The notes under the pieces were generated by a model. The model ran no database searches and was not told the DNA's origin. It was given only the letters and a program-made list of their open reading frames with translations. The position numbers and the translations under genes were made by a program. From the NCBI GenBank assembly GCA_964553615.1, contig CAZKMA010000009.1, forward strand, positions 17,864-81,863: a stretch of DNA of 64,000 nucleotides, in the 5' to 3' direction. The first letter of the stretch is position 1. Each line of letters opens with the position of its first letter. Below, one piece after another: positions 1,880 to 54,600 of the stretch. Source of the DNA: an uncultured Spirochaetales bacterium. GTDB taxonomy: Bacteria; Spirochaetota; Spirochaetia; DSM-27196; DATKUC01.

Positions 1880-1908
1880 AGCATACTTCGCGACCCGGGG
1901 TTGCGCAA
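1880..1908 (-). promoter_or_regulatory. sigma70-type promoter for pyrC
   Basis: TTGCGC-17bp-TATGCT on the minus strand; -10 box ends 10 nt before ATG 1869. Confidence 0.55.
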
Positions 1909-1917
1909 CCGGGAACA

Positions 1918-1946
1918 CTGACATGGCGCGCGGTCGCTGCTACAAT
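1918..1946 (+). promoter_or_regulatory. sigma70-type promoter (extended -10) for the DUF4954 gene
   Basis: CTGACA-17bp-TACAAT preceded by TGc. Confidence 0.65.
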
Positions 1947-1961
1947 GTGCGTGTGGAAGAG

Positions 1962-3731: not shown

Positions 3732-3775
3732 CCCCTTGCTGGACGCGGTGAGGCGGCAGGGGTATCTTAGCTTGT

Positions 3776-4873
3776 ATGACACCCCTCGATGAGCTTGCAC
3801 TGCACCAGATTCGCTACTGCCTCAGCTCGTTCTCTGCACTGGACCGATTCTTTCGACAGCCGAGCGGCTCCACCGTCCATCTGGCGGTCGAATGCTCTCT
3901 CGTCGACCTTGCCAGAGTCTTCACCGAGCTGGAGTTCCCGGCAATAGAGGGAGTGGACGCCGCAATCAGCCGCGACGAAAAACGATACTACTTCAGCTGT
4001 CACGAAGACTCCATCACACAGTTTCAGCGTAACAGTTTTCCCGTTATGGATCTGCTCTACGACCCGGCACGGGATCTATTTCTGGATCCATTCGACGTCT
4101 ATCCGGAGCTTCGCCGGGCGGTCATCGAACCGGTTCTACAAACGGCAGACCCGATACAGATACTCATGGATATGGCCATCCTCGCAGGGCGCTATCACTA
4201 CCAGTTTGATGGTGATCTACCCCGCATTTCTGCCGAGACGGTCCCGCCGGCGAGCGAGACTCACCGAAGGTTCGTTGTCGATCTTTTCACCGGGAAATCT
4301 CCATGGAAAGGTCTCGCTCTGCTCATGGATTCCGGCTTCGTCGAGCATTTCTGGCCGGTCTTCATGCCCATGAACGAAACCGATCAGTCGAAAGGGCACC
4401 ATCCGGAAGGGAACGTCTGGGTACATTCGCTGGAGACTCTGAAGTACCGCAAGACCACAGACCTCGTGCTCTCTCTGGCCCTGTTCCTTCACGATTGCGG
4501 AAAACCATATTCGATCAGGAACGGTGAACGACGCTTCGATGGCCATGCAGAGATCGGTGCGGATATTGCACGGAAGTTCCTCGGTGCGCTCGGATTCGAC
4601 CGGGCCCGGATCGATGACGTCTTCTTTCTTATCAAGTTTCACATGGTGCCGGGAGCACTCTCGGTACTCCCGATCTGGCGCACGGAGAAACTCATGTCTT
4701 CCCCGCTCTTTCCCCTGTTGCTCGAGCTGTACCGGTGCGACCTTTCTTCGACGTACCGCGGACCGAACGGGTACTATGAGGCGTGCAAGGTCTACCGCGC
4801 GTTCCTCAAACACTCCAGCAATCCCTTTCGCGGGACCGACGGAAAGAAACTGGTTCGTCTCTACGTGGAATAG
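3776..4873 (+). CDS. HD-domain protein resembling CCA-adding/poly(A) polymerase with a degenerate nucleotidyltransferase head
   Basis: HHPEGNVWVHSL and LFLHDCGKP, followed by FDGHAEIGA and LIKFHM. The N-terminus lacks the GGxVRD/DxD motifs. Confidence 0.8.
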   Translation: MTPLDELALHQIRYCLSSFSALDRFFRQPSGSTVHLAVECSLVDLARVFTELEFPAIEGVDAAISRDEKRYYFSCHEDSITQFQRNSFPVMDLLYDPARDLFLDPFDVYPELRRAVIEPVLQTADPIQILMDMAILAGRYHYQFDGDLPRISAETVPPASETHRRFVVDLFTGKSPWKGLALLMDSGFVEHFWPVFMPMNETDQSKGHHPEGNVWVHSLETLKYRKTTDLVLSLALFLHDCGKPYSIRNGERRFDGHAEIGADIARKFLGALGFDRARIDDVFFLIKFHMVPGALSVLPIWRTEKLMSSPLFPLLLELYRCDLSSTYRGPNGYYEACKVYRAFLKHSSNPFRGTDGKKLVRLYVE

Positions 4874-6177: not shown

Positions 6178-6178
6178 G

Positions 6179-7612
6179 TCACTGAGCTCCTTTCAATTCA
6201 CTGTCTGACGGGCGTGAAAGATCGGGTGCCCCGTCCGGGAAGAACGCACGATGGACAATATTGAGCACTTCGCTACCCGAAGATCGCTCCGTTACAAATG
6301 AGATATTCATCTCCGAAGAGCCCTGTGCAATTGCAAGGATATTGACCTCCGAGTCCCCGAGCGCGGCGAAAAGTTTGCCGGCAATTCCCGGACGTCCCCG
6401 CATATTTTCACCGATAACGGCAACGATTTCCAGGTTGGAGAGAAGCTGGAACTGTTGAATCTTCCGGGCGTGCAGCTCCGGTGCAAGTTCCCGCTTCAGA
6501 CTTTCGATTGCTTCCTTCGACTGGTTTGCCATGCACACAATGCAGATACTGTGCTCGGAAGAAGCCTGACTGATCATGATGATGTTTACGTGCGCGCGCG
6601 CAAGCGCGCTGAACACCCGGGAGGCAATGCCAGGTATGCCGACCATTCCACCACCCTCAACGTTGATCAGCGCCACATCGGGAACCGATGCAATGCCGGT
6701 TATCGACAGTGGCTTTCGGTGAGCGGTCTTTACTATTCGGGTTCCCGGCGCGGAAGGGTTGAGCGTATTCTTGATTACGAGCGGAATGTTCTTTTCCACC
6801 GCAGGAATCATCGTATACGGATGAATGACCTTTGCGCCAAAATAGGAAAGCTCCATTGCCTCTGCGTAGCTGATCTCCGGAACTACAAAGCTCTCGGGTA
6901 CAAACCGCGGATCAGCACTGTAGACCCCATCAACGTCCGTCCAGATCTCGATAATCTCAGCGTCCATCCCTGCGCCCACTATGGATGCGGTATAATCGGA
7001 CCCGTCCCGGCCCAGAGTGGTAGTTACACCCGTTGAGGTTGCGGCTATGAAGCCGGTAATCACGGGCAACCCGGAAACACGGGACAGACGTTCCCTGATC
7101 CGTTCATAGCTCGCCGGAAAATCGACCTCTGCCTCACCGTGTCTGTCGTCGGTCAGGATCATCTCCCGTGCGTCCACCATCTCAACGCCGATACCGATAG
7201 ACGCCACGTACGCCGAGAACAGATGGCAGTTCAATAGCTCTCCGTAACTCACCACGAGATCGAGAGTCCGCGGCGAACACTCCTTGACCAGCTCTACACC
7301 GTGCAGGATGTCATCCAGCCCGTCGAGCCGGACATCCAGCGCTGTAGCAATGGAATCCCGCTCGTCCATGGGAAATAACACGTCAACTGCCGCGCGCTGC
7401 CGGTCGCGGATCTCCTGGACACGTTGGTGGTAGACATTTGCCCCGGATTCGGCCTCTCGTGCGGCGCCGATCAACAGGTCCGTGATCCCGCGCATCGCGG
7501 ACAGAACAACGACCACCTGACCGCTGCGCTGCTCGGCCTTCACAATTTCCAAAACGGCGCGAATTTTCTCGGCGTCCCTTACCGAGCTTCCGCCGAACTT
7601 CATCACTTTCAT
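6179..7612 (-). CDS. lysC: Aspartate kinase, monofunctional, two C-terminal ACT domains
   Basis: MKVMKFGGSSV, TTLGRDGSDYTA, WTDVDGVYSADPR, ACT repeats (ISQASSE, IAQGSSE). No homoserine dehydrogenase domain. Confidence 0.9.
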   Translation of the reverse strand: MKVMKFGGSSVRDAEKIRAVLEIVKAEQRSGQVVVVLSAMRGITDLLIGAAREAESGANVYHQRVQEIRDRQRAAVDVLFPMDERDSIATALDVRLDGLDDILHGVELVKECSPRTLDLVVSYGELLNCHLFSAYVASIGIGVEMVDAREMILTDDRHGEAEVDFPASYERIRERLSRVSGLPVITGFIAATSTGVTTTLGRDGSDYTASIVGAGMDAEIIEIWTDVDGVYSADPRFVPESFVVPEISYAEAMELSYFGAKVIHPYTMIPAVEKNIPLVIKNTLNPSAPGTRIVKTAHRKPLSITGIASVPDVALINVEGGGMVGIPGIASRVFSALARAHVNIIMISQASSEHSICIVCMANQSKEAIESLKRELAPELHARKIQQFQLLSNLEIVAVIGENMRGRPGIAGKLFAALGDSEVNILAIAQGSSEMNISFVTERSSGSEVLNIVHRAFFPDGAPDLSRPSDSELKGAQ

Positions 7613-7727
7613 GGCGGCAATACTACCACACCTGTGCCGCCAGTTTCACGTACGCACGAGGCGCGTCAACGCAAAACAACGGAGTCTGAGTCTGGCGGAA
7701 AGAGCCGGCGAAGGGTATGATGGGTGG

Positions 7728-8981
7728 GTGAAGGGATTTCTGCTCATTGCCCTGATTCTCGTTCTCGAAGCATGCGCTACCGGTTCAACCGGGACAAAGA
7801 ACAGCCTGTCCCCGGCAGACAGGGTGGTTGCGCAGTCGCCCGCAACATCCACCGAGGACCGGAACGGCGAAAATGAAGCGACCGGGCAGAAAAAGGTGAC
7901 ACCGGTTGGGCAGTCCAAACAGAGCGAGAGTGCGTCAACATCGGACAAACAGCCTCCCCTCGGCCGCGCTCAACTTCTGAAGCTCGCTCTGGCGGAGTCG
8001 CCCTCAAATACATACCCGGTACGGAAGGGCGGCGAACCTCTCGCCATCGTCACCGATCTTGACAGAGACGGACTGAACGACGTTGCGCTCCTGTCCATTG
8101 CAACCGACAAGCCGGAGGAAGCGCAGTTTTCGGTACTCAGCCGACTGTCCCGGCTCTTTATCCCGGACGCTCCTGTGCCGACATTCTATCTTGAGGTCTA
8201 TAAACAGCAACACGGCGGCGTGCACCTTTCCGAGACCATACCTTTGGGAAAGAAGCGAGTTCTCGAGGGGCTCACGGTCCGGAGGATCGATCGCAAGGCC
8301 GCCGGTCCCGTTGCTGTCGTCGCTTCGTTTCAGAATCATGATGGAGAAGAGCAGGAGTGGGCAATATTCACAGACAGCACCCATTTCTCCCGGTTTTCAC
8401 TGCTGGAGACTCCCAACGTCCGGACGGTCGTACGGGACATAGACAACGACGGAGTCCTCGATATCCTCGTCTTTCACACGGGGATAGAGGCCGGAATCGG
8501 CTACGAGACGTTCATCACCTGGTTCAAGTACAAAGACGGAAGCTACCAGGAATACCGGAGCACGAACGTTGTTCGGAACCTGCGTGCTTTTCTCACGTCC
8601 GCCAGAGAGACAATCGAATCCGGCGACTGGAAATCGTTTCTGAACATCGCACTCGACCCCCTGGTACTGCGTGGGTTGCGATCCCGCGGTGTACCGGATG
8701 GAGCAATCATTTCCGCGCTGTTCACGCCGGCTCCCATCGGCGCAGGCAGCGAACCCCCGTTCGACTACTACAAACCGGCAAAGGCAATTCAGAACATCGT
8801 TTTCCCGGAAATCCGCGAAAACCCCTTTTCTTCCCCCGGGCGCTCTCTCCGGTTCTCGATGACGGTTCGGGTCATCTGCTGCGCTGGAGAAAGCCACTTC
8901 TACACAGCCACAATCTCAATGGACCCGTTCGGTCGGAGGGAGTTTTCCTTCGATCCGGGGCAGGGATTGATCGGCAAATAA
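7728..8981 (+). CDS. Hypothetical lipoprotein with two DxDxDG (FG-GAP/VCBS-like) loops
   Basis: GTG 7728 gives [16 protein letters not shown] (lipobox). Contains [12 protein letters not shown] and [12 protein letters not shown]. Confidence 0.7.
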
Positions 8982-9007
8982 GCGAATCGGACAATGAAGG
9001 TTTGACA

Positions 9008-10288: not shown

Positions 10289-11081
10289 TCCGCTCCGGCA
10301 CCGTTACGGAATCCCGGATCCGGAGGATGGTGTCGTAAGCAGTGCGGATCCGTATAAAGGCCGCCGCGGATGCCGCCCGCTGTCGTTCGTCCAGACTTCC
10401 GAGGGTGTCCGGATGAAACTGTGCCGCAAGCGTTCGGAAAACCGCCCGAATTTCGGCCGTCGCCGCGTCCGGCGGGACACCGAGGATTGCGTATGCATCT
10501 TTGAGCCCGCGATCATTCGCCTCCGCATCGATATTCAGCAATTCGAATAGCTTGCGCATCTCCTTCCGTATCTCTCCGGAGTCGGACCAGACCATGGCGG
10601 AAAGCAGCTCCGCTACCTCGCCGCGCCGGTATTCGCCGAAGGACACCGTAACGGAGTTCTCGGCTTCGTCCGTCAGATGTGCTTGCAGACAAAGTGCCAG
10701 CTCGGAAACGTTCAGCCCGGCAGACAGGCGCACCGCCTGATCAATTGAACGATTTATGAGGTGAGCCCGCCGGCGGAAATTGCGTGAAACCGGAGGACGT
10801 CGCAGAAATGCCCTGAGCAGATCGATCTGCCGCACCAGAACCGCTCCCTGGAGAACACAGGCATACACCACTACCCCGATCAGAGCGAGCGATGCGCGAT
10901 CAATTCCGGGCGGAGCGCTTCCAAGCGGATTGAGAAAGAACCGCCGATACAGCGTCCGGTTCCGTCGTTCACGGAGAACCTGGTCAACAAGATACCCGAT
11001 GACAAAGCCGAAGAGAACGCCGAACGGACCCGCAACGATGCCCGCAGCGGCTCCAATCAGTCGCCCGAAAATTACCGGCAT
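10269..11081 (-). CDS. djlA: DjlA-like membrane-anchored J-domain co-chaperone
   Basis: N-terminal Gly-rich TM ([20 protein letters not shown]); C-terminal J domain AYAILGV...QFHPD. Confidence 0.75.
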
Positions 11082-11083
11082 GG

Positions 11084-12805: not shown

Positions 12806-13766
12806 TGTCGATCTCCCGTTTCCACCGATCAAAGGGCGGCAGGAGGACGTTAATGACAAACAGGAAAAATCCGATCAGGAGAATACCCGCCGGGGCGACG
12901 TAGGAGACAAAACGCGGCTGCACGATGGCGGCTGCGAATTCCCGAAACGAAGAGCTCTGGAGAAAGGTCCCGGCCGCGAGAAGCAACCGAAGCGCTGCGA
13001 ACGCAAGGATGCCGTTGAAAAGCGGCCAACGCGTCAGACGGATCAGGAACCAGAAGCCGGTCACACAGAACACGAACGCGAACACGGTACCAAGATACAG
13101 GGCGGAGTACCAGCGGGGTTGACCCCAGAAATAGTGTCCAAGCCCGCGTGCGTCCGCAAAGAGCGATTCGAGCACCGGCGCCGGTTGAAACATGTGCACG
13201 AAGGACGTTGCCGAATCGGCAATTCGGTACTCTCTCCCTGTTTCGGGTATTCGAATCTGATGTGTCTTCGGATCTACAAGCGCCTCATGGACCAGACGGA
13301 ACCCCGGTTCTTCGCCGTGACGGTAAACCGTCACATTTGTGAGGCTCAACCCCACCACCGATTCGGCGTAGAGATAGTCCTCTCCGAATCGGTAAACAAG
13401 TTTCGAAACAACGGTGTGAGAGGGGGGAATAGTCGGAGATAGTGAGACTCGGACCGCCTGGACACCGTAAATTCCGGAAACAAGAGCGGCCCCCGAAACT
13501 GCAGTCAGCAGAAACAGTGCAGTGAAACGAAACCGGCTCACGTTGAGCACCGGGAAAAGGGCAACGACAATTGAGATAAGGACTGCAACCGGATACACCT
13601 CGTGCAATCCGTTCAGCATCACGATTGAGAACAGTCTGGTGGACAGGCCTCGGCCCGGAATGTACGCCGCTCCCCAGACGGAAAGCACGTACAGCCCCAC
13701 CAGCAGAGCCGTGGTGAGCAGGCACACCAGGACGAAGCGAACGGGTACCAGGACTGCACTTTTCAC
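12798..13766 (-). CDS. Multi-pass membrane protein, possible divergent LptF/LptG-like permease
   Basis: Three TMs, a beta-rich loop (LYAESVVGLSLTNVTVYR), three more TMs. Start moved to GTG 13766, 8 nt after TTGCAA-17-TGtTACGAT. Confidence 0.55.
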   Translation of the reverse strand: MKSAVLVPVRFVLVCLLTTALLVGLYVLSVWGAAYIPGRGLSTRLFSIVMLNGLHEVYPVAVLISIVVALFPVLNVSRFRFTALFLLTAVSGAALVSGIYGVQAVRVSLSPTIPPSHTVVSKLVYRFGEDYLYAESVVGLSLTNVTVYRHGEEPGFRLVHEALVDPKTHQIRIPETGREYRIADSATSFVHMFQPAPVLESLFADARGLGHYFWGQPRWYSALYLGTVFAFVFCVTGFWFLIRLTRWPLFNGILAFAALRLLLAAGTFLQSSSFREFAAAIVQPRFVSYVAPAGILLIGFFLFVINVLLPPFDRWKREIDSE

Positions 13767-13865
13767 AACGGCTGATCGTAACACGGCGCATGGACTCTTG
13801 CAAGCGGACCAATAAAGCGTTACCCGGTCACAAGATATGAGTATATCTGTGGGGTTTTCCGCATT

Positions 13866-16771: not shown

Positions 16772-17505
16772 ATCATTCCGGCCGAAAGATCAATAATAGC
16801 TCCATTAATGAGGTCACCACCGGCACAAATCATCTCCGCGACAAATCTGCCAATCTGTTCCGGCTGCTGGAGCCTGCGCGTCCGCGAACGCGAAGTCCAC
16901 TCAGTTCTCTGCTCGTCTGTTATATATTCGGTATCAACATAGCCGGGCGTTACAACATTGCACGTAATATTTTTCGCACCGTATCCGCGCGCAACCGATT
17001 TTGCAAGGACTCCAAGGCCAATTTTCGCCGCCGAATACGCGGCAACGGTCGTATATCCCCGCATCGTGTCACCGCCGGTTGCCCCGAAAAGCACTATGCG
17101 CCCATAATCGCGGCGGGACATTCCGCTGAGAGCGCGGGAAACGAGATATCCAGGAAGTGCCAGATTCAAACCGGTCAGATAACTCCAGTCGGCCATGTTC
17201 ATCCCGGCGAGAGACGCCTGGAGATATGGACCGAAGGCGCAGATCAGAATGTCGACCGTCTCGGAGGCAACACCCAGAACCTCGGCATCTTCAAGCGAAC
17301 GAATCTCCTGCATGACCAGACTCGCCTGAACGCCGCTCGATCGAACCCGCTCGACAAGCCGTTCTCCCTTTTCCCTATTATGACCGCCGTGAATGATCAG
17401 CCCGGCGCCAAGACGCGCAATCTCGAGAACCACCGCCCGGCCGATACCGCCGGTACCGCCCACAACGAGCGCGGTCTTTCCCTTCAGATCCGCAGCTGCC
17501 GCCAT
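16768..17505 (-). CDS. Short-chain dehydrogenase/reductase (FabG-like)
   Basis: VVGGTGGIG, catalytic YSAAK, NVVTPGYVDT. Confidence 0.92.
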   Translation of the reverse strand: MAAAADLKGKTALVVGGTGGIGRAVVLEIARLGAGLIIHGGHNREKGERLVERVRSSGVQASLVMQEIRSLEDAEVLGVASETVDILICAFGPYLQASLAGMNMADWSYLTGLNLALPGYLVSRALSGMSRRDYGRIVLFGATGGDTMRGYTTVAAYSAAKIGLGVLAKSVARGYGAKNITCNVVTPGYVDTEYITDEQRTEWTSRSRTRRLQQPEQIGRFVAEMICAGGDLINGAIIDLSAGMI

Positions 17506-17533
17506 GATCGAAGGATATCACATCCGCAGGATT

Positions 17534-17562
17534 TAGACAAAGCGCGGGAATGCTGCTATACT
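17534..17562 (+). promoter_or_regulatory. sigma70 promoter (extended -10), divergent from the SDR promoter
   Basis: TAGACA-17bp-TATACT with TGc. The opposite strand carries TTGTCT-17-TGaTATCCT (17512-17540), 6 nt before the SDR ATG. Confidence 0.7.
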
Positions 17563-17571
17563 CGATGGATC

Positions 17572-18054
17572 ATGAAACGGAATCTTCTGGTTCTGCTGAT
17601 TTTCTTTGGCTCAATAGCCATGCTTTTCGCGGCAAATCAAAAGGATTTTGACAACACCGTGAATTTCAGTCTCAACATCGAGCAGATCGATACCCTCGTT
17701 TCGCAGTCAAAACAGGCCCAGATCGACCGGAATAGATACCTGATTCTCAACGGAGCGGTCGCGTCAATCGAGATTATCCGTCCCGATGAAAAGGACTTCC
17801 TCGCGCTCGTCGAGCTGGTGTCGGGCAAGTGGACCGGTCTCGAAAAGGTGAGCCTCTATCGAGTCTACGTGATCCTTTCAGGTCCCGAATACTTCAAACG
17901 ACTTCCCGCGCAGCCTCCGCGTACCCCGGAGCCAGGCATGATAGCGGTCAACGACAAGATCCTCGTGGTAGGCACATTTGCAGATGTCGGCCAGGCGCCG
18001 GACGGCAAGATGGTAGCCGTCATACGCGGCGACAAGGTTCGCCTGCTTCAGTAG
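17572..18054 (+). CDS. Hypothetical exported protein (possible OB-fold)
   Basis: MKRNLLVLLIFFGSIAMLFAA signal peptide. The 429-aa track ORF upstream of 17572 is antisense shadow of the SDR. Confidence 0.75.
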   Translation: MKRNLLVLLIFFGSIAMLFAANQKDFDNTVNFSLNIEQIDTLVSQSKQAQIDRNRYLILNGAVASIEIIRPDEKDFLALVELVSGKWTGLEKVSLYRVYVILSGPEYFKRLPAQPPRTPEPGMIAVNDKILVVGTFADVGQAPDGKMVAVIRGDKVRLLQ

Positions 18055-19172: not shown

Positions 19173-19350
19173 CGAATCGTCTCCCCTTTCCCGGGAAATG
19201 AGGTATGTCGGTATGCGGAACTGATGCTTCGCCGAATACGTCTGACTGACTGGCTGGACGAACGTACATCCTTAAGCGTAGTGGATTCAAAGAAAAAAGC
19301 AAGGGAACGGACGAATAATCTCGAATCGTTGTATAGTATAGCCTGCAATT

Positions 19351-19926
19351 ATGGTGGATGTACGAAGCCTGGTCCGCATTTTCGAGCGCGGTGTCCTTGC
19401 GAAATTCTTCTTCGAGCTCCTCTACTTTTCGCTGCTGATCCTGCTCGACGGCTTCGCTCTCGTTGTGTTTTCCCGGTCGAACGGCGTGTTCATTATGCTT
19501 GCAATCGAGGCGACAACCAGTCTTGCCGGTGCAATTGTCGTCATTGATTCAACCCGAAGACTCGCGGCGAGCGCCCGTCGCAGCATTCGAAGCGGGGCAT
19601 ATCCGGCGCCGGAATTCAGGGATCTTGCAGGATGCCTGCTCGCCGGAATTCTCATAGTTATCCCCGGACTGGCAACCAGCGCCGTGGGAGTGCTGCTCTT
19701 CATGCCGGGAGTCCGTTCTCTTGTCGGAAGAGCGCTTACCCGAAGAATCGAACCCGAACTACTCCAGGTTTACCAGCACCTGAAGCTCATGGAGTTCGAA
19801 GACAAGGATCGAACAGAGAACGTCGAACTAGAGATTTCGCACGCGGTGCACGACCAGAAGAAAGCCGTAGTACAGATAGACGAATCCACGGAGAATCCGC
19901 CACGGCCTCCGGAGCAGTTCGGGTAA
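19351..19926 (+). CDS. fxsA: FxsA family membrane protein
   Basis: AGCLLAGILIVIPGLATSAVGVLLFMP matches the FxsA LLxxPGFxTD-type motif; several TMs. Confidence 0.75.
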   Translation: MVDVRSLVRIFERGVLAKFFFELLYFSLLILLDGFALVVFSRSNGVFIMLAIEATTSLAGAIVVIDSTRRLAASARRSIRSGAYPAPEFRDLAGCLLAGILIVIPGLATSAVGVLLFMPGVRSLVGRALTRRIEPELLQVYQHLKLMEFEDKDRTENVELEISHAVHDQKKAVVQIDESTENPPRPPEQFG

Positions 19927-22773: not shown

Positions 22774-22918
22774 CTGGCTCTCCACGTGAGAAATCACGTC
22801 CCAATAATAGCGCAAATTGCCGACTTGTACACTACGATACACCCGGCACGGAGTATCCGCGATCGACGAACCCATGCACTTGACCGGAGCTAAGCGTCGC
22901 CCGTACACTCGTTTCGAC

Positions 22919-23386
22919 ATGAGCCGGCCACGATTCTTTTCCCTTGCAGGTGCGCTGTGGGAACTCACCCGTTTCTCGCTTCTCTACGCCCTTGTTCTCT
23001 GGCAGGCGGAGGGCAGCAACCTGTCAATGGTCCGAATTCTCTGGTTCGGCTCGGCGCAGCTCGCGCTGATTCCCGCTTTCATCCTCCTTGCGTGGGATCC
23101 GATACGGTATAGCCAGTACATCAGGCTCATCGCCGCTGCGAAAATCGTCTCCCTGGTTCCCGGAATCGGGCTCACCGTCATTCTTGTCCGGAGCCTCGGG
23201 CTGTTCGTTGAGCCTGTTCACTTTATCCGATTCTATTTTCCGGTCTTTGCCTCGTTCGCGATCCTGGCGATCGATGTCATTTTTCTCCTGATTCTGATAC
23301 GATGGGGCAGCGGAGGAGGGGCGGAACAACCGGATACGGACTCTTCCCTTCCCGAATACCACGAAACCGAGGTCAAGGATATCTGA
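22919..23386 (+). CDS. Hypothetical membrane protein (4 TM)
   Basis: Hydrophobic ORF; ATG 22919 lies 9 nt after TTGACC-18-TACACT; stop abuts the next gene. Confidence 0.7.
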   Translation: MSRPRFFSLAGALWELTRFSLLYALVLWQAEGSNLSMVRILWFGSAQLALIPAFILLAWDPIRYSQYIRLIAAAKIVSLVPGIGLTVILVRSLGLFVEPVHFIRFYFPVFASFAILAIDVIFLLILIRWGSGGGAEQPDTDSSLPEYHETEVKDI

Positions 23387-45025: not shown

Positions 45026-45070
45026 TCTAATATAGCTGACGGTCCGTGTGGCGGGCGAAGAAGTGTAACC

Positions 45071-45103
45071 GGCGGTGAGTCGTTGGCCACGCTCCCCGCC
45101 TTT
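45071..45103 (+). terminator. Terminator-like hairpin downstream of the sigma54 promoter
   Basis: GGCGG-T-GAG-T-CGT-loop-ACG-CTC-C-CCGCC followed by TTT (short U-tract). Confidence 0.4.
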
Positions 45104-45137
45104 CCCATACAGATATTATACTCAGGAACAGGGCAAA

Positions 45138-45851: not shown

Positions 45852-46682
45852 TCACATCCAGAGATAGAGCCGGTAATTCCTGATTCCATACAACGCAATA
45901 CCTCCAACCAGGGCGAGTGATCCGGCAAGGATCGCGACCGGGTTGGAGAAATAGAAAAGTACCCCTCTGCCCAGAGCAGTAAGCGCAACCGCAAACGCAA
46001 TTACGGCGTGATCCGGTACTCCTCGGGTGACAATCGTGGTGGAGTAGCTCAGAATTGTGAGAACGCCAATCAGGAGAAGAATCGTCTGAATTGTCGATTC
46101 GTTGCCAACGTGATACAGAAGGTTCGTGTACAGGGAAAGCGAATCTATGGGCACAACGTAGGCAACTGCAAACGCCACGAGTCCGGAAAGACCCAGCACC
46201 GTTGCGTACTTCTGATACTGGACGCCTGCCGCATAGAGACTCGAGGCAAGGAGACAGAAGGTACCGAGAAACTGGCCAAAGTACACAAACCGCGTTACGA
46301 CCATTCCATACAACGACGGCAGGTTCAGATACAGAAAATAGAGTTGAATGGACTTGATGCCGTCAAAACTCAGCGAAAGAACAAAGACGGTAAAGAAGAA
46401 CACCTCAGGCGCCGTTGTCTTCAGAAAGTACCTGCGGAACAGATAGGCGCCGATAGATGCGGTGAACACGAGGACGCCAATGCCGACAAAGTTCCATCCA
46501 AGTGCTATGTTCGGGGATTTCCAGTGAAAGAACAGCCATCGCTGCGTACCAAGCAGGATAGCACCGGATGGATGGTATCCGTGAGCGGTAACGACCCAGA
46601 TCACGTAACCGCACAGGCCGAGTATAGCCACCGAGAGCCCGATGCCTATCAAGAGTATGGTGTTCCGGGTGGCAAGGGTCAT
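45852..46682 (-). CDS. Hypothetical multi-pass membrane protein (about 8 TM)
   Basis: Long hydrophobic ORF; TGaTATATT lies 6 nt before the ATG. Confidence 0.75.
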   Translation of the reverse strand: MTLATRNTILLIGIGLSVAILGLCGYVIWVVTAHGYHPSGAILLGTQRWLFFHWKSPNIALGWNFVGIGVLVFTASIGAYLFRRYFLKTTAPEVFFFTVFVLSLSFDGIKSIQLYFLYLNLPSLYGMVVTRFVYFGQFLGTFCLLASSLYAAGVQYQKYATVLGLSGLVAFAVAYVVPIDSLSLYTNLLYHVGNESTIQTILLLIGVLTILSYSTTIVTRGVPDHAVIAFAVALTALGRGVLFYFSNPVAILAGSLALVGGIALYGIRNYRLYLWM

Positions 46683-46764
46683 GTGAGTAATATATCAATT
46701 TGGAATGAGAAAAAACTACAGTAAGTTCGGAACTGATCGATATTGAAAGGGGAGGCAAGGGAAG

Positions 46765-47497: not shown

Positions 47498-47526
47498 TTG
47501 ACACGGCAATACCCTGCCTCTACAAT
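47498..47526 (+). promoter_or_regulatory. Near-consensus sigma70 promoter for proS
   Basis: TTGACA-17bp-TACAAT. Confidence 0.85.
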
Positions 47527-47557
47527 GCCCCAAATCTCGGAATACGGACGTCTACCC

Positions 47558-48997
47558 ATGGCTGAACAGATCACTCCCCGCGCAGAGAATTACTCTGACT
47601 GGTACATCGATGTTGTCCTTCGGGCACGGCTTGCCGATTACAGTCCCGTGAAAGGCTGTATGGTCATTCGACCCCAGGGCTATGCCCTGTGGGAGAAGAT
47701 GCAGGCGGCCCTGGATTCCATGTTCAAGGAAACCGGTCACCAGAACGCATATTTCCCGCTGCTCATCCCGGAAAGTTTCATGAAACGTGAAGCCGAACAT
47801 GTCGAGGGTTTTGCCCCGGAACTTGCGGTCGTTACCCACGGGGGCGGCGAAGAACTGGAAGAACCGCTGGTCATACGGCCCACTTCAGAGACCATTATCT
47901 GGAGCATGTACAAGAAATGGATCCAGTCCTACCGGGATCTTCCGCTGCTCATCAACCAGTGGGCAAATGTCCTGCGTTGGGAAAAACGGACGCGGCTCTT
48001 TCTGCGGACAACGGAGTTTCTCTGGCAGGAAGGTCACACCGCGCACGCTTCGGAAGAAGAGGCACGTGAAGAGACGCTTCGTATGCTCGAAGTCTACAAG
48101 ACCTTCGCGGAAGAGTACATGGCGCTCCCCGTCTACACCGGAGTAAAGACCGAGTCCGAGAAGTTTGCCGGAGCAGTCAACACCTATGCGATAGAGGCAA
48201 TGATGCAGGACAAGAAAGCGCTTCAGTCCGGCACTTCGCATTTTCTCGGTCAGAACTTCGCCCGGGCGTTCGACGTAACCTACCAGACAAAGGAAGGCGT
48301 TCTTGACCACGTGTGGGCCACTTCCTGGGGAGTTTCCACCCGGCTCATCGGAGCGCTCGTCATGGCACATTCGGACGACTCCGGTCTCGTCATCCCGCCG
48401 AAACTGGCGCCGGTACAGGCAGTCATTGTGCCCATCTTCAAGAACAAGAACAGAACTGAGGTCATTGAGTACGCATCCCGTCTCCACGCCGAGCTCAAGA
48501 CGAAGCTTTCCGTAAAGCTGGATGATGATGACAACAACTCCCCGGGCTGGAAGTTCGCCGAATACGAGATGCTCGGGATACCCGTCCGGATTGAAATTGG
48601 TCCTCGTGACATGGAATCCGGCACTGCAATGCTTGTGCGACGGGACACCCGCACGAAGGAGTCGGTGGAAATCGGCAGGGTCGGAGAGCGTGTTACGGAA
48701 CTGCTCGAACAGATGCAGACCGACCTCTTCGAGAAGGCCCGTGCGTTTCGGGATGAGAATACCTTCGACATCGCCGACTATGCAGAGTTCAAAGCAATGT
48801 TCGAAGGTGAAAGTGCCGGCGGTTTTACCCGGTCGCCATGGTGCGGAAGCCCGGAATGCGAAACGCAGGTCAAAGAGGACACACGGGCGACCATTCGCGT
48901 GCTCCCGTTCGGAAACGAGGAACAGGTCGGAGGCAAGAAGTGCATGGTGTGCGGTTCAGAAGCGCACCACATTGCGCTCTTTGCCAAGGCGTATTGA
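47558..48997 (+). CDS. proS: Proline--tRNA ligase, archaeal/eukaryote-type
   Basis: [54 protein letters not shown]-terminal FAKAY; no editing insertion. Confidence 0.97.
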
Positions 48998-49028
48998 ATC
49001 GCCGTCGGGAAGTGCTATACTCAAGAGC

Positions 49029-49715
49029 ATGAGATTCGCGCACCCGAACGCTCGGTTTCTGGTCTTCATACTCGCGGTATCTTCGTTTGCGGCGTTCTTC
49101 GTTCCCCGTACATACGCATTGAACGTTGGCGACATAGACGCGCGGCTCGGACTGTTCTGGATCGGCAATGGGTACACCGTAGACGCCAGCGGCAATCCGG
49201 TTCAAAAGAGTGATGTGAGCCCACTTGCCGGCGGCGCGGGCATAGATCTCGGCTTTCACCTCTCGCCCTCGCTGACGCTTCGGCCGGCAATAGACCTGTT
49301 CGGCATCGAATACGCAATGACTACAAGCGGCAAGGTGGTCCCAACTCAGATTGAAAGCGCAGATGCGCTCCTCATGCTGAACGTCCTCATCTCGGCCCCG
49401 CTCACCATGACCTTTCCTATTGCGGATAAGCTGCAGCTCTCTGCCGGAGTTTCACCCAGTGTGCTTCTCCGTATACCGACAATCGGGTACGGAAGTCCAG
49501 ACAGGGCTGCGATAACCGCTTACATGTATCAGTCGGCACGATTTTTCTATCCCGAAGCACAGATTGGTCTGAACTACCTGTTTACCCCGCGCGTTCAGTT
49601 CGGACTGATGCTTCGCACCCTTTTTCCCATCTTTCATTTCTGGGACGGCGAACAGGTTCCGTTCTGGGACCAGATGATTGCATCGGGAACGTTCTTCCTG
49701 CGCTTTATCCTGTAG
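49029..49715 (+). CDS. Hypothetical outer-membrane beta-barrel-like protein
   Basis: Signal peptide, alternating amphipathic strands, aromatic C-terminus (FFLRFIL). TGcTATACT lies 7 nt before the ATG. Confidence 0.65.
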   Translation: MRFAHPNARFLVFILAVSSFAAFFVPRTYALNVGDIDARLGLFWIGNGYTVDASGNPVQKSDVSPLAGGAGIDLGFHLSPSLTLRPAIDLFGIEYAMTTSGKVVPTQIESADALLMLNVLISAPLTMTFPIADKLQLSAGVSPSVLLRIPTIGYGSPDRAAITAYMYQSARFFYPEAQIGLNYLFTPRVQFGLMLRTLFPIFHFWDGEQVPFWDQMIASGTFFLRFIL

Positions 49716-49728
49716 CGGCAATTCACTC

Positions 49729-50955
49729 CTACCTGCCGGACCCGGCATATTCAGCCCGCGTCTTCCGCGTCCCGGCCAGGAGAAATCCAATAGTTCCTGA
49801 GACCACAACATCCAGAAGTGCACCAATGCTTACCAGAATGGGCCCTGCAGCCTGCAGGATGAGATATCCGTCCTCGAGCCCGCGCCCGTAGAACCGGGAA
49901 AGGAGGGAAAGCGACACCATTACGCCCATTCCGGGCACCGATCCGAGCAGAAATGATGTGAGAAACGTGAACAGAATGACCCACAGGAACTGCGCGAGTG
50001 AAAGTTCAAGACTCGAATAGGACCGGAGCACGAGTATGAAGGCAATGGCGGTAACCATGGCGGTTCCGCTGCGACAGAACACTGCGTTTATTGGGAATAT
50101 CACCGATCCCGCTTTCCTCGGTATGCCGAGTTCCTCGCCACCGATTCGTGTAAGCACTCCGAGCGAGAAGTAGCTATCGCGGGAGAACAGCGCGGCAAGT
50201 GCGGGAGCAAGCATGACATAGAGGAACTCCAGCGGATTCGTCTTTGCTCCGAAGAAATAGATGACGAGAGGAACGATGACAAGAACAACAACCGCGGCTA
50301 TGAAGATTACGGTAATAAATAGCTGCCGAAACATCTCGAGATCACCAAGCTGCCTGAGCTCGAGCAGCGAATACGCCGCGAAAGCAACGAAGCCAATGCC
50401 AATCAGATCGACAATGACGCGGTTTATCCGGTAGAAGATGCGCGACAAAGAATCGAATAGATCGGTGACCGGAGAGGTGTAGAGCCCGGCGGAATTGAGT
50501 GTCAGACCGATAATGAGGGCAAGTACGAGCACCGGCAGCAGGTACGTGGGGGACCCGAGCGCCTGCATGGCGTTTCCCGGAAAAGCCTCCAGAAGCAGCG
50601 CCCGAACCGTGGGAAGCTGCTGTTGAGTCGCCTGCTGAACAACAATCGGCACACGCTCGGGCGACAGTATGATTACCGTGAGCGCCCCGAGAAATGCAAG
50701 GCCCGCGGTAGCAATAACGATAGAGAGAACCGTCCGCCCGACCACCGGCAGAACCGCACGTTCCTCTTTCAACTCTCGCACTCCGGAGGCAAGACTGAAA
50801 AATACCATTGCGGAAACCGCATAGGTACCTATGTTCAGAACAACTTTTGCAATGTAGCGCAACAAGTCGAGAGTATCACCACCATACAGCGGCAGATACA
50901 ATCCCAGAAGGATACCCAGGATACCACCGGCAAGAAACCGCATCCAGATTTTCAT
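49729..50955 (-). CDS. Dicarboxylate/amino-acid:cation symporter (DAACS) family
   Basis: LLLEAFPGN, AALFSRDSYFSL, PINAVFCRSGTA, GSVPGMG; a divergent member. Confidence 0.8.
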   Translation of the reverse strand: MKIWMRFLAGGILGILLGLYLPLYGGDTLDLLRYIAKVVLNIGTYAVSAMVFFSLASGVRELKEERAVLPVVGRTVLSIVIATAGLAFLGALTVIILSPERVPIVVQQATQQQLPTVRALLLEAFPGNAMQALGSPTYLLPVLVLALIIGLTLNSAGLYTSPVTDLFDSLSRIFYRINRVIVDLIGIGFVAFAAYSLLELRQLGDLEMFRQLFITVIFIAAVVVLVIVPLVIYFFGAKTNPLEFLYVMLAPALAALFSRDSYFSLGVLTRIGGEELGIPRKAGSVIFPINAVFCRSGTAMVTAIAFILVLRSYSSLELSLAQFLWVILFTFLTSFLLGSVPGMGVMVSLSLLSRFYGRGLEDGYLILQAAGPILVSIGALLDVVVSGTIGFLLAGTRKTRAEYAGSGR

Positions 50956-50973
50956 GGGTGAACATTAAACCAT

Positions 50974-51630
50974 CTAGCGGACGAATGAGAAGAGCCCGGA
51001 TTTCCCGGTATACCTGAGCCATTTCCCGCGGGACCGCTCCGGCTTCTCCTGCGCTGCGGTCATGACGAATTGCGAAAACTCGCGAGGCTGATCACTCGCG
51101 GACTCGAATCCGCGCAGGAAAATCGGTTCGTTCTGGTAGGCCGCAAAAAGCTCGTCGCCGATCGACCGAAAAGCCGCTGCGGAAGACGCCTCCAGCGGCG
51201 AACCAAGGGACTCGGAGGGACGTTGAAATACCAGAGAGAGCGTACCACGTCGTTGCCGCATGAAATGCGCCAGTACCTCCTTCATGATAAACAGGTATCC
51301 TTTCACATCCGCATCGATTTTTGCCTCCATCTCTGCGGCGGTGAGCTCGTGAAACGGCCGAAACTTGTCTTCGGATGAATAGACAATGATCGCCTCATCC
51401 AGAGTACCAAGGACATTGACTGCTCGCAGAAGCACGGAGCGCGCCGACAGCGGGGAACGTCGATTCCACGGCGTAGAGCCGGCTGCATCTTCCGGCACAT
51501 CGAGCGAGGAGGGTCTATCCAGGTTCGAATCGAATGTTGTGAGCAGCCGCACCTTCAGATTCAGTCCTTCCTGAACGAGCGCGTCGATCAGGGCACTGTT
51601 TCTTCCGGCGATCAGGAGTTGTCGCGCCAT
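50974..51630 (-). CDS. Degenerate SDR/Rossmann-fold protein
   Basis: SDR-like pattern (GTLDEAII...NV-like KGYLFIMKEVL...RGTLSLV) without TGxxxGxG or YxxxK. ATG 51630 lies 7 nt after TTGACC-18-TACTAT. Confidence 0.65.
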   Translation of the reverse strand: MARQLLIAGRNSALIDALVQEGLNLKVRLLTTFDSNLDRPSSLDVPEDAAGSTPWNRRSPLSARSVLLRAVNVLGTLDEAIIVYSSEDKFRPFHELTAAEMEAKIDADVKGYLFIMKEVLAHFMRQRRGTLSLVFQRPSESLGSPLEASSAAAFRSIGDELFAAYQNEPIFLRGFESASDQPREFSQFVMTAAQEKPERSRGKWLRYTGKSGLFSFVR

Positions 51631-51656
51631 GGCAGGTATAGTAGCGGCATCAATCA

Positions 51657-54600
51657 TCACTGGTCAAGCAAATGGTCCACCCGAAAGCCGGACTCGGCCT
51701 CCATCTCGCTCCACTGCACAGCAATCCCTGCAATCCGTTTCATTTCGGGCGACTGCTCGGCGGCTGCTTGTGCCGGGGCCTCCGATTGCGCAAGAACACG
51801 GATCATCCCGACCATGGCGAGCGCCCAGCTCAGGATCTCGAAGGACTCCTTCTGAAACCAGATGGCACCTTCGAAGGTGTTGAACCCGAGAAATCTGGTA
51901 ACCTCGGCGTCTTCGCACAGATCCCGGAGAATATGCCGGGCAGCGTCGCGGACATTGCCGGATGCTGGCGAATCTCCTTCCACCGAATCGAACCAGGACT
52001 CGTGCCTGAGCAGAATGCGCAGCAGCGATTCATAACGCGGCGAGTTGAGTGCCTGACGATAGTTTTCTGCCATTACCGGGGTAACCGCTGCCGATATCCG
52101 CGATGGTATTTCCCAGTCATCCAGCATGGATGCGGAATCCACACAGAGATAGGCAAGCGGTGAGAGCAGTATCCAGCCGACAATTGCGGCAAGCAGTTGA
52201 GAGTTTTCCGGGAGCCCGTCGGCAAGAAGTGTCGCTGATGACGCAGTACAGGACCGCGCATAGGAAAGAGCATCCTCCGTTCGCCCACCAAGGTCTCCGA
52301 ACTCGACGGCACTCAGGAGGAAATTTTCGTACTTTTTGAAGAAGGGCTCAATTCGCTTCGGATCGAGGCCGTGTTCAAGAGAGCTGAAGATCGACTCGAT
52401 GCAGTCGCGCGCAAGCGCGGGTGCAAGCGGCGCGTACAGCGGTCGGTAGTGAATGTCCCTCAACGCGGCGTCTATATCGGGAACGCCATTTCCGGCAGCC
52501 TGCCGTTCCAGGGCACCGTAGAGCCCGGCTTCGGTGTCTTTCTCTTCACGAATCCCGGTAAAGACCTGGCACTGATATCCGGCAAGTCCCACATGAAGCC
52601 CCTTTTCGGCCAGCTCCGCGCTGTTCCGAATGAACCAGAGCCCCGTTCTATTTTCGAACAGGAGACAATAGTGGCTGGCATCTCGATGGAGGCCGAGGGT
52701 TTCGGACAGATCCTTCTGCACAAGCACTCGCTCTCCTGCTTCGTCTTTCTGTGCAAAAGCGGCACAGACGCGAATCCAGCCCCACGCTCTCTCATAGGCG
52801 TTGTTGTACAGAATGAGCGCGGACTCGTGACCGTGCCGGTTGGTGTAGGCAAAGACATTCTCGTTCACCGTTCCGTCGTTCGCATAAAGATCAAACAGCG
52901 AGAAGTTCTCCACTTCGGCAAACAGATAGCGCTTCTTGATGAGGGGAAAGATTTCACGTTCATGACGCGTCACAACCACGCTGTCGGGTTCCTCGGCCAG
53001 GTAGGAACGGCGATATTCCATCCCGTATTTCTCGGCGAACCCCTCAATCTGACCATGGCCGAACATGGGAAGTCCCGGCATTGTTACGAGCATGGTGCAG
53101 ATACCGAAGTACTTATCCTCGCGACCGAACTGTGCAACGGCCGTCTCTTCGTCGGGATTGTTCATGAAGTTCACAAATCGTTTGAGGATGTTGCGGTCGA
53201 ACTCCAGGGTGTTCTTGATCGTCTCCCGATATTTGGCGTTTTCCTGATTCTTCAACATGTTCATGAACGCGCTGTTGTACACCCGGTGCATTCCGAGTGT
53301 CCGCACGAAATAGCCTTCCATCATCCAGAACGCCTCGGCGAGAAGAAGGGTGTCGGGGAGCTCGTTGCCTACCCGGTCGACGACCTCCCGCCAGAACTCA
53401 TTCGGCATTGCGCGGTTGAACTCATCTGCGGTAAGTCCGTGATCGGCACGGGAAGGGATATCTCCGCCGGTCCCGGGTTCAGGAAACCAGAGCCGATGAT
53501 AGTGTCGCCGGGCAAGCGTCATTGCCGCATCGAAACGAATGATGGGAAAGACCCGTGCAACATGCAGAATCGTGTCAATGACCGCATCCCGGGTTTCAGG
53601 ATTCAGGAAGTCCAGCTGTGCGGTGTCGTTCCACGGCATGTGCGTTCCGTCGTTGCCGTGGTAGATATAACGTATCTCCCCGGATCGATTGTCCACCCGC
53701 TTGAATACGACCGCTGCGTCGGTCCGGTCGAAGTAATGGTCTTCGAGGTAAACACCGATATCCGGGCCCCGTGAAAGATTCTCACCGCTGAAGGTATAGC
53801 CGGGAAAGGGCGGTTCTGAGACCTGAATGAACCGCTCGGGGTGCTGGTCAATCCAGGTGCTGTCAATTCCGGTATGGTTGGGTACCATGTCGCTTGCAAG
53901 TCGGATACCACGCGCCGCACAACGGGTCTTCAGAGTCTCGAGCGCATCCCATCCGCCGAGCTCGGCGGCAATCTCGTAGCCAAGGAGCGAATATGCGGAA
54001 CCTTCGGCCTCGCCGTTTCCCATCTTTCGCTTGATGCGCCGGGATGCGGGGCTTCGCTCCCAGATACCGATGAGCCATAGAGCCGTAAAGCCCCAGGACG
54101 CAAGCCGATCGAGATCTCGATCCGGAATCTGGTCGAGCGTCCGTATTTCCCTGCCGTGCTCTCGAGAGAGCTGATAGAGCCAGACCAGGATGTTCTTGGC
54201 TATCATTACAACCCGCGGCATCCATTCACGATCCTGGCTGAACCGCTCGAGTTCGGCCTCCTGTCCTCCGAACTGATAGACCTTTGTTTCCCCGGGACCC
54301 GGTCCGGCAAAGAATCCCTTCTGGTCCTCTTTGAACAGATCGAGTCCCCGCAGAACCTTCAATACCAGGTCCCCAAGGTAAGTTCCCCAGTTCTGCCGAA
54401 TATATCGCAACTGTCCTTCGAGAGAATCAGGCTCGTGGCGGGCGGGCTCCAGCAATAGATCCAGAAGCGGAGCCGTATCTGCGGCGGATAATGAAGCGAC
54501 CATGCGTTCCATTTCAGCCATGACCCGGTCATAACCGGGAAGACTGCTGGTGGAATCCACGGAAAGCAGCTCCTCGAATCCGAGAAAGGCCGGATTCTGG

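Follow-up and report, generated by a model that had tools for sequence, protein, structure and literature searches.

Sigma70-type promoters abutting start codons predict leaderless mRNAs in an uncultured salt-marsh spirochaete

The DNA analyzed here, termed the window, is a 64 kb stretch (64,000 nucleotides) with a G+C content of 57% from a Spirochaetales metagenome-assembled genome (MAG), whose host is an uncultured salt-marsh spirochaete. The window sequence was found in salt-marsh and sediment metagenomes. Its ProRS is 73% identical to that of Spirochaetales, Spirochaetaceae and Sediminispirochaeta MAGs, in agreement with an earlier note on this DNA that had named a spirochaete as the host. 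The gene sample consisted of 54 genes, 33 of them first in a transcription unit and 21 internal, and describes the 64 kb rather than the whole genome. The longest public gene call was used as the start of each gene, independent of the starts chosen in the earlier note. An Rfam scan and a tRNA scan of the window gave zero matches.

In 12 genes a TAnnnT hexamer had been described almost directly in front of the start codon, and all 12 motif-plus-start strings were confirmed in position and strand (Table 1). The -10 box lies 6 nt from the start in four cases, 7 nt in four, 8 nt in one and 9 nt in two, with a further spacing of 6 nt at position 1953. Three of the 12 start codons are GUG.

Table 1. 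Genes with a promoter-like -10 box next to the start codon. Layouts are given as -35 box, spacer (nt), -10 box with TGn extension where present, distance to the start (nt) and start codon.
Gene	Gene position	Site	Strand	Layout	Context
DUF4954 gene	1953-3731	1918..1955	+	CTGACA-17-TGcTACAAT-6-GTG	
HD-domain gene	3776-4873	3740..3778	+	TGGACG-17-TATCTT-7-ATG	44 nt behind same-strand DUF4954 gene
Aspartokinase	6179-7612	7610..7649	-	GTGAAA-18-TGgTAGTAT-7-ATG	
Lipoprotein gene, weak FG-GAP match	7728-8981	7692..7730	+	TATGAT-6-GTG	Divergent from aspartokinase
Membrane protein gene	12798-13766	13764..13803	-	TTGCAA-17-TGtTACGAT-8-GTG	Adjoins LptF/G-like gene
Short-chain dehydrogenase	16768-17505	17503..17540	-	TTGTCT-17-TGaTATCCT-6-ATG	
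160-aa secreted or membrane protein	17572-18054	17534..17574	+	TAGACA-17-TGcTATACT-9-ATG	Divergent from dehydrogenase
fxsA (further possible case, absent from the earlier list)	19351-19926	19332..19353	+	TATAGT 13 nt, TAGTAT 11 nt and TAGCCT 6 nt before ATG	
155-aa protein	22919-23386	22880..22921	+	TTGACC-18-TACACT-9-ATG	
276-aa membrane protein (hyp276)	45852-46682	46680..46697	-	TGaTATATT-6-ATG	No recognisable -35 (2/6)
228-aa secreted or membrane protein (hyp228)	49029-49715	48994..49031	+	TTGAAT-16-TGcTATACT-7-ATG	Promoter within proS 3' end
Sodium:dicarboxylate symporter family gene	49729-50955	50953..50991	-	TTCTCA-18-TAATGT-6-ATG	18 nt behind same-strand gene
218-aa protein	50974-51630	51628..51667	-	TTGACC-18-TACTAT-7-ATG	

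The absence of a clear Shine-Dalgarno (SD) site at these genes, as the earlier note had it, was borne out: none of the 12 starts has GGAG, GAGG or AGGA 4-12 nt upstream. An SD-like core was found in 26 of the 40 other genes. Since the -10 box fills the SD positions, the absence of an SD is not fully independent of the motif. Internal operon genes had been said to carry an SD or to overlap the preceding gene, and 13 of the 21 indeed have an SD-like core while five overlap the upstream gene. The leaderless-type layout precedes roughly a quarter of the genes in the window and about 36-39% of those first in a transcription unit (12-13 of 33), so that the heavy use claimed for it is a fair description of the window.

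Enrichment was determined against 2000 dinucleotide-preserving shuffles of the 60-nt regions upstream of the same 54 genes. TANNNT was found 6-9 nt before the start of 9 of the 54 genes, compared to 1.95 ± 1.36 in the shuffles, none of which reached 9. With the public calls, spacings of 6-7 nt alone gave eight genes against 1.0 in shuffles. The shuffle control on TAnnnT frequency that had been suggested, run here within the window, thus gave a positional peak at 6-7 nt exceeding the shuffles. It also answers the worry about circularity, since the enrichment persists with public gene calls in place of starts picked by the reader. A start-agnostic test gave a similar picture: 7 of 47 TGNTANNNT sites on both strands have an ATG or GTG at 6-9 nt that opens an ORF of at least 100 codons, compared to a background of ~0.44 per spacing bin elsewhere. 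Histograms that start from the motif and take in all ORFs carried noise from internal in-frame starts and from 3-base periodicity. In the version limited to the first start codon of each ORF, in-frame TAA/TAG boundary stops distorted the counts at spacings 0, 3, 6 and 9. The analysis therefore rests on the public calls tested against shuffles, together with the composite pattern of -35 and -10.

The hexamers were found to be parts of full sigma70-type promoters. A match of at least 4/6 to TTGACA at 16-19 nt is present at 10 of 14 sites, compared to 15.6% of all 643 TANNNT sites (p=4.5e-6), and a TGn extension at 7 of 14 compared to a background of 7.3% (p=2e-5). An independent promoter-consensus scan recovered 5 of the 12 sites; of the 31 sites it returned, 5 adjoin a gene start where 0.08 would be expected (p=1.7e-8), and the total of promoter-like sites in the window was not above shuffles. 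The promoters are concentrated on first genes, with the motif preceding 13 of 33 first genes and only 1 of 21 internal genes (Fisher p=0.005). This distribution points to a signal for transcription rather than for translation.

Several of the starts could be set independently of the motif. All of ~40 aspartokinase homologues share the N-terminus MKVMKFGG; ATG 7612 is thereby fixed, and the public call at 7603 cuts off part of this conserved stretch. For hyp276 the N-terminus reads MTLATRNT in the window and MTLAGRNT in L011 (pattern MTLxxRNT); the L008 orthologue has MTFAFRNT behind an SD, fixing start 46682. Start 50955 of the symporter gene is fixed by the motif MK[ILV]W, conserved in eight sequences. 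The starts at 7728, 17572, 49029 and 17505 are backed by signal peptides or domain logic. The product of 7728 opens with a signal peptide and a lipobox-like Cys, that of 17572 starts MKRNLLVLLIFFGSIA with the signal peptide at the proposed start, and the signal peptide of the 49029 product likewise begins there. The dehydrogenase ORF has no start codon ahead of ATG 17505, which gives the N-terminus MAAAADLKGKTALVVGG before the Rossmann motif. The start at 51630 is backed by promoter conservation. The candidate start ATG 3776 is the first in its ORF and is called by two pipelines. Homology does not fix the starts at 1953, 13766 (N-terminus MKSAVLVPVRFVLVCLL) and 22919. GTG 1953 is the least certain of the 12; its promoter is among the three best-scoring promoter-like sites in positions 1-20000 (10/12 matches, with TG), and ATG 1962 would imply a leader of ~9 nt. 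The promoter of 17572 also scores 10/12 with TG.

The earlier expectation that gene callers misplace such starts proved correct, as public pipelines conflict mutually or with homology at 1953, 7612, 7728, 13766, 22919 and 51630. The DUF4954 gene is called from ATG 1923, upstream of the promoter, and the calls differ for the lipoprotein gene (7611 vs 7728), the membrane protein gene (13766 vs 13784) and the 155-aa protein (22874 vs 22919, the alternative ATG 22874 lying upstream of the -35 box). Callers prefer ATG 51657 over 51630. The 17572 gene is present in the calls of L002 and L089 and absent from those of L001, and in one pipeline a spurious 429-aa ORF stands in place of the pair at 17505 and 17572.

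We also considered sites outside the original 12. The fxsA gene lacks an SD and has a weak -35 (2/6); a leader of 0-6 nt is likely. GTG 57385 of the DUF4015 gene (TATTCT-7) is probably a false match: an RNA contig starts at 57310, 75 nt upstream, and the hydrophobic signal-peptide region extends upstream to an in-frame ATC at 57319, located 6 nt after AGGAGGG, which we suspect to be the actual start. DUF4015 orthologues were sought as a check on 57385 and none were found. For ctpB, GTG 22797 (TATTAT-6) was rejected and the SD-preceded ATG 22773 favoured. At the GH3 gene, TGgTATAAT lies 9 nt before TTG 44811, and callers pick ATG 44793, 27 nt past the box.

Four stretches of the window were compared with metatranscriptome runs X9, X13, X23, X25 and X26, which gave a few short contigs per gene at a depth of ~2-16 and carry no 5'-end information. 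Dehydrogenase contigs from two runs stop at 17492 and 17493, 12-13 nt inside the ORF, and none reaches the promoter.

The layout of -10 box and start was found to be kept in orthologues that share only ~25-40% protein identity. Counting the window together with its orthologues, it is present in 11 of 12 members for hyp228, 6 of 7 for hyp276, 3 of 3 for hyp227 and 3 of 9 for the symporter, compared to 0 of 10 in the SD-led control family DUF2259. The hyp228 members (window and 10 of 11 Spirochaetia MAG orthologues) carry TATAGT, TATACT, TACAAT or TACACT 6-10 nt before the start, and the hyp276 members (window and 5 of 6 orthologues) carry TAnnnT at 6-9 nt. The symporter layout recurs in L009 (TTGACC-18-TAAGGT-7-ATG) and L017 (TTGACG-17-TAAGGT-6-ATG), and five other orthologues are SD-led. 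The promoter at 51630 is found as TTGACC-17-TACTAT-7-ATG in L008 and TTGACC-17-TAGTAT-7-ATG in L017 at a protein identity of 32-35%; since the -35 box is in a different reading frame, the conservation is that of DNA and not of protein. The L093 orthologue of the lipoprotein gene has TGgTATGAT-9-ATG. For aspartokinase the layout is loosely conserved (spacing 10 in L094 and 5 in L098, others leadered or SD-led), with only seven close relatives from metagenomes and most others apparently from other phyla. The HD-domain gene orthologues in L095 and L097 are SD-led, and the layout at 3776 is therefore not conserved. Individual orthologues thus appear, as judged from their upstream sequences, to flip between leaderless and SD-led forms.

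At the level of the clade we used the composite TTGNNN-16..18-TANNNT followed by an ATG or GTG that opens an ORF of at least 100 codons. In close spirochaete loci it peaks at spacing 6-7, with 24 occurrences against 8.6 at 6-9 nt (p=1e-5), and in Treponema-like loci 9 were found against 0.95 (p=8e-7). The peak is absent from Caldithrix, Bacteroidota and Myxococcota loci.

Altogether, we consider it likely that these are ordinary sigma70-type promoters abutting start codons and that the resulting mRNAs are leaderless. The motif positions and their enrichment, the -35 and TGn features, the confinement to first genes, the several fixed starts and the conservation in orthologues support the proposal of leaderless initiation in this spirochaete; from these we infer the exact transcription start sites and the translation mechanism. 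An ordinary housekeeping promoter, built on a TAnnnT -10 box that is often extended by TGn and usually accompanied by a TTGACA-like -35 at 16-18 nt, would direct RNA polymerase to begin transcription at the A or G of the start codon or within ~3 nt upstream of it. Where transcription starts at the start codon, the mRNA would therefore lack both a 5' leader and an SD site, and a ribosome with initiator tRNA would recognise the 5'-terminal AUG or GUG. Where the spacing is 8-9 nt (13766, 17572 and 22919), the transcript may begin 1-3 nt ahead of the start codon. Normal GGAG-type SD sites serve the internal operon genes and the other first genes, and the leaderless-type layout is found across related Spirochaetales and Treponema-like genomes.

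The promoters could alternatively be real but secondary, most transcripts being leadered or polycistronic from upstream promoters and the leaderless form a minor isoform. Genes 3776, 49029, 50955 and 51630 trail a same-strand gene by 18-44 nt. The 3' end of the gene upstream of the symporter gene and the 50955 start lie on one RNA contig (X9 50829-51153), so that at least some symporter transcripts are shared with that gene, and the overlap of ATG 51657 with the amylase stop as TGATG is a classic coupled start. However, 8 of the 12 genes are divergent or lie behind long upstream gaps, and hence no same-strand upstream gene can feed those eight. As moreover none of the 12 has an SD to serve a leadered transcript and the 51630 promoter DNA is conserved in L008 and L017, we regard this explanation as unlikely.

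Real promoters combined with misassigned starts, where translation would begin downstream on a short leadered mRNA by a non-SD mechanism, would fit the three starts that homology leaves unfixed (1953, 13766 and 22919) and the ATG 9 nt after GTG 1953, and ctpB, with its GTG beside an SD-preceded ATG, demonstrates that coincidences occur. This is very unlikely, however, given that N-termini are conserved from residue 1 in aspartokinase, the symporter, hyp276 and, in relatives, proS, that SD-led orthologues share the same first residue, that signal peptides start at the proposed codons, and that no SD-preceded in-frame start was found within ~30 codons downstream. That TAnnnT is simply common in AT-richer intergenic DNA and fitting starts were chosen is highly improbable. 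In its favour, the earlier reader conceded that spacing had guided the choice of some starts, promoter-like sites are overall as numerous as in shuffles, and the added match at 57385 is probably false. Against it, the enrichment persists with public calls, with dinucleotide shuffles and in start-agnostic tests, and the sites show -35 and TGn enrichment and are conserved in orthologues. These tests have already largely refuted an origin by chance or by selection of starts.

Classic leaderless mRNAs are those of lambda cI and Tn1721 tetR, and leaderless translation is also known in mycobacteria (cited in PMC5314773). Leaderless GUG starts are tolerated in mycobacteria and poor in E. coli. The mechanism in the window is presumed to be the same, a 5'-terminal AUG or GUG being enough without an SD. 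The leaderless reading of the window agrees with the group C signature, a -10 box 6-8 nt from the start, which is an accepted leaderless marker (PMC3160421; PMC6028130). Most Actinobacteria and Deinococcus-Thermus fall into group C of GeneMarkS-2, in which 25-50% of operons begin with a leaderless gene (PMC6028130; PMC3160421). Both there and in the window, TAnnnT lies 6-8 nt before first-gene starts, internal and other first genes are SD-led at an equal distance, and standard gene finders mis-set starts. The window differs in phylum and in having TGn and a TTGACA-like -35 at many sites, and the estimate given here is for 64 kb plus scattered related loci.

Among spirochaetes, a 2011 survey found 1.8-6.9% leaderless genes in 6 of 18 genomes (PMC3160421). 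In Leptospira interrogans, dRNA-seq placed ~440 of ~2865 primary transcription start sites within 10 nt of the start, about half of those with a UTR below 2 nt, and the authors found no -10/-35 motif except sigma54 elements (PMC5243855). This species belongs to the same phylum and differs from our host in order and G+C content; transcription starts are experimental there, whereas here they are predicted from a clear promoter motif. In Borrelia burgdorferi, 19% of 5' UTRs are below 10 nt and 85 mRNAs are classed as leaderless, with a Pribnow box and no conserved -35 (PMC5314773). In this low-GC pathogen of the same phylum the leaderless share is smaller, whereas in the window the share of transcription units is apparently higher and a -35 is often present.

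The layout, well known in other bacteria, had already been reported for Leptospira and Borrelia and is now seen in free-living relatives as well. It is an ordinary, known phenomenon, well supported here, and reveals no new mechanism; the lineage and the high frequency are new. For 6 of the 12 such genes the public calls are conflicting or wrong. Standard pipelines mis-set starts in spirochaete MAGs, which affects N-termini, signal-peptide prediction and promoter annotation. Orthologue sets with a switched initiation mode would be useful for studying the evolution of that switch. A lineage with a recognisable -35 and an extended -10 would join the bacteria that rely heavily on leaderless initiation. 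We put forward tentatively, at slightly less than even chances, that free-living Spirochaetales and Treponema-like lineages are a third large group of bacteria whose leaderless usage reaches the level of Actinobacteria, with at least a third of transcription units leaderless. In such orthologous genes as proS, the symporter, hyp276 and aspartokinase, short evolutionary distances would then suffice for repeated flips between an SD-led and a leaderless form. If true, leaderless usage in Spirochaetia would be far above the 2-7% of earlier spirochaete surveys.

All 12 motif-plus-start strings read by the earlier note were found at the positions and on the strands it gave, and for each site the -10 box and its spacing were tabulated along with the TGn extension and the best-matching -35. 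A list of 54 genes was built from ORFs, Pfam matches and public gene calls, the calls of four pipelines on identical or nearly identical sequence being placed on the window by BLAST. Genes divergent from their neighbor, or following it at a distance of 25 nt or more, were taken as first in a transcription unit (n = 33), leaving 21 internal genes. TANNNT 6–9 nt upstream and no Shine-Dalgarno (SD) sequence was found for 13 of the 33 first genes and 1 of the 21 internal genes, the symporter gene (Fisher p = 0.005). A GGAG/GAGG/AGGA core 4–12 nt upstream was present in 13/33 and 13/21, respectively, and neither signal in 7/33 and 7/21. The limitation of TANNNT to first genes argues for a signal acting in transcription and not in translation.

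To control for circularity, the longest public call per gene was used instead of the starts of the earlier note. TANNNT at spacing 6–9 was then found in 9 of 54 genes, compared to 1.95 ± 1.36 when the same 60-nt upstream regions were shuffled 2000 times with dinucleotides preserved; none of the shuffles reached 9. At spacing 6–7 only, the same calls gave 8 genes compared to 1.0 in shuffles. The curated starts gave 14 genes with TANNNT compared to 2.0. In a start-agnostic test, 7 of the 47 TGNTANNNT sites in the window had an ATG or GTG 6–9 nt further on that opened an ORF of 100 codons or more; the background elsewhere was approximately 0.44 per spacing bin. The earlier note had named the lack of an excess over shuffled intergenic controls as a refutation of its reading. 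The excess is real, since the public-call counts exceed the shuffles and the start-agnostic test agrees. A second small cluster of TANNNT was seen at spacing 18–21 before gene starts (7 genes).

The 14 sites also resembled promoters in other respects. A match of at least 4/6 to TTGACA at 16–19 nt was found for 10 of them, compared to 15.6% of the window's 643 TANNNT sites overall (p = 4.5e-6), and a TGn extended -10 for 7, compared to 7.3% in the background (p = 2e-5). An independent consensus scan gave 31 promoter-like sites in 60 kb, a total not above shuffles; five of these (before 1953, 17572, 22919, 49029, and 51630) end 6–9 nt ahead of a gene start, compared to 0.08 expected (p = 1.7e-8).

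Features of the window, with the basis for gene starts and the number of family members (window and orthologues) keeping TAnnnT near the start
Feature	Position	Observation	Members with box
Gene start	1953	Promoter logic alone	
HD gene	3776	Promoter logic alone	Layout not kept; relatives SD-led
Aspartokinase	7612	MKVMKFGG invariant, ~40 homologues	
Lipoprotein gene	7728	Predicted signal peptide opens at first codon	L093 orthologue: TGgTATGAT-9-ATG
Gene start	13766	Promoter logic alone	
Promoter-like site	16743-16774 (-)	TTGACA-17-TACTAT	
Short-chain dehydrogenase	16768-17505 (-)	Start just ahead of Rossmann motif	
160-aa protein	17572-18054 (+)	Predicted signal peptide opens at first codon	
Gene start	22919	Promoter logic alone	
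FapA-domain gene	24545-27544	Single 999-aa ORF, also in L003	
Carotenoid-type genes and pntA-pntA2-pntB	36809-41998 (-)		
GH3-hyp234 divergent region	44794-45137	344 nt	
hyp276	46682	MTLATRNT aligns with MTLAGRNT (L011), MTFAFRNT (L008)	6/7, 6–9 nt before start
Upstream of DUF2259	46683-46764	Conserved cGATATT/cGATACT box	
DUF2259 (SD-led control)	46765		0/10, all SD-led
Upstream of proS	47498-47560 (+)	Near-consensus TTGACA-17-TACAAT, 31-nt gap without SD, homology-fixed ATG 47558	
proS (ProRS)	47558-48997		
hyp228	49029	Predicted signal peptide opens at first codon	11/12, TATAGT-like, 6–10 nt before start
Symporter	50955	N-terminal MK[ILV]W conserved, 8 sequences	3/9, others SD-led
hyp227	51630	TTGACC-17-TACTAT/TAGTAT-7-ATG in L008, L017	3/3
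DUF4015 start region	57304-57387 (+)		

The invariant aspartokinase N-terminus shows that ATG 7612 is right and that one public call (7603) is wrong. The first residue of hyp276 is fixed by the SD-led orthologue in the related locus L008, which begins at the same residue. For hyp227 the earlier note gave 51630 and three pipelines 51657, and promoter DNA conserved in L008 and L017 supports the former. What is conserved here is DNA, since protein identity is only 32–35% and the -35 box lies in a reading frame different from that of the window.

In one public annotation (L001) a 429-aa ORF without Pfam match spans 16765-18054, where two other pipelines have the real divergent pair of dehydrogenase and 160-aa protein. 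The L001 assembly (8858-11858) also has the FapA-domain gene broken into 930 aa and 65 aa, through either a frameshift or a difference between strains. For DUF4015 the annotated start is GTG 57385, but a hydrophobic signal-peptide-like stretch extends further upstream. An in-frame ATC at 57319, 6 nt after AGGAGGG, may be a non-canonical start codon; the product would begin MQRKTTRRIVGTAVPTILILTAVLLVV. The start of one RNA contig lies at 57310, 75 nt upstream of the GTG.

The window has a G+C content of 57%. ProRS is 73% identical to that of uncultured Spirochaetales, Spirochaetaceae, and Sediminispirochaeta MAGs, with which the gene order around proS is shared, and the assignment to a spirochaete in the earlier note is therefore correct. 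Near-identical DNA is present in salt-marsh and sediment metagenomes and a few metatranscriptomes. Neither tRNA genes nor Rfam families were found in scans of the window. Lycopene-cyclase-domain and amine-oxidase/phytoene-desaturase-like genes lie directly upstream of the transhydrogenase genes, on the same strand; carotenoid-type genes in such a setting are unusual for a spirochaete.

Among relatives, proS has the leaderless layout in three loci (L009, L015, L016) and is SD-led in Treponema-like loci. The DUF2259 box lies approximately 17–20 nt before the start in all orthologues (L008, L009, L011, L014, L015, L021, L026), pointing to a very short leader that includes the SD. Across loci we searched for TTGNNN-16..18-TANNNT with a start codon after it that opens a long ORF. 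Close spirochaete loci had a sharp peak at spacing 6–7 (24 compared to 8.6 expected at 6–9; p = 1e-5), and Treponema-like loci also had a peak (9 compared to 0.95; p = 8e-7), while Caldithrix, Bacteroidota, and Myxococcota loci from the same query had none. As judged from sequence, the -10-to-start layout is characteristic of the clade, and in evolution a given gene readily changes its initiation mode.

Parts of the window are represented in five metatranscriptome runs, solely by contigs of low depth. At 17505 the contigs of two runs end at 17492 and 17493, short of the promoter, which no contig enters. At 3776, 7728, and 13766 contig ends lie 26–55 nt within the ORF. The contig 50829-51153 crosses the symporter start, and there is thus read-through here from the gene upstream. 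These contigs are compatible with the leaderless model but cannot confirm it.

Two further regions had promoter-like sites and RNA contigs. The site at 16743-16774 overlaps the dehydrogenase stop codon approximately 95 nt ahead of the STAS/CesT-like/PspA operon, the best-expressed stretch in the metatranscriptomes; RNA contigs of two runs both end at 16772-16774 beside adapter sequence, upstream of the predicted transcription start site (TSS). The GH3-hyp234 region has two strong minus-strand sites, TTCGCA-18-TGgTATAAT (end at 44821) and TTTGCA-18-TATAAT (end at 45115), and the hyp234 RNA contigs begin at 45048-45087, well upstream of ATG 45138.

The TSS lies approximately 6–8 nt past the -10 hexamer, and a -10 box at this distance before a start codon is the signature of leaderless genes (PMC6028130, PMC3160421). 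Work cited in PMC5314773 indicates that in bacteria rich in leaderless mRNAs a 5'-terminal AUG or GUG is enough for initiation. On these grounds we infer TSS and translation mode for 12 (perhaps 13) genes, which would be transcribed leaderless or with leaders of at most 3 nt. The window sites carry the signature of group C genomes. This pattern was found in 1028 of 4769 bacteria, most of them Actinobacteria and Deinococcus-Thermus, and 25–50% of their operons are leaderless (PMC6028130). In spirochaetes an early computational survey gave only 1.8–6.9% leaderless genes (PMC3160421), dRNA-seq in Leptospira placed ~440 of ~2865 primary TSS at most 10 nt from the start (PMC5243855), and 19% of Borrelia 5' UTRs are <10 nt (PMC5314773). 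Our literature search found no report of leaderless mRNAs for Spirochaetaceae or Treponema. Altogether, statistics, promoter anatomy, and comparative genomics support the leaderless reading of the earlier note at the sequence level. The novelty is modest, this being a known phenomenon in a new lineage rather than a novel type of system, and the frequency of leaderless genes in this spirochaete lineage is apparently high.
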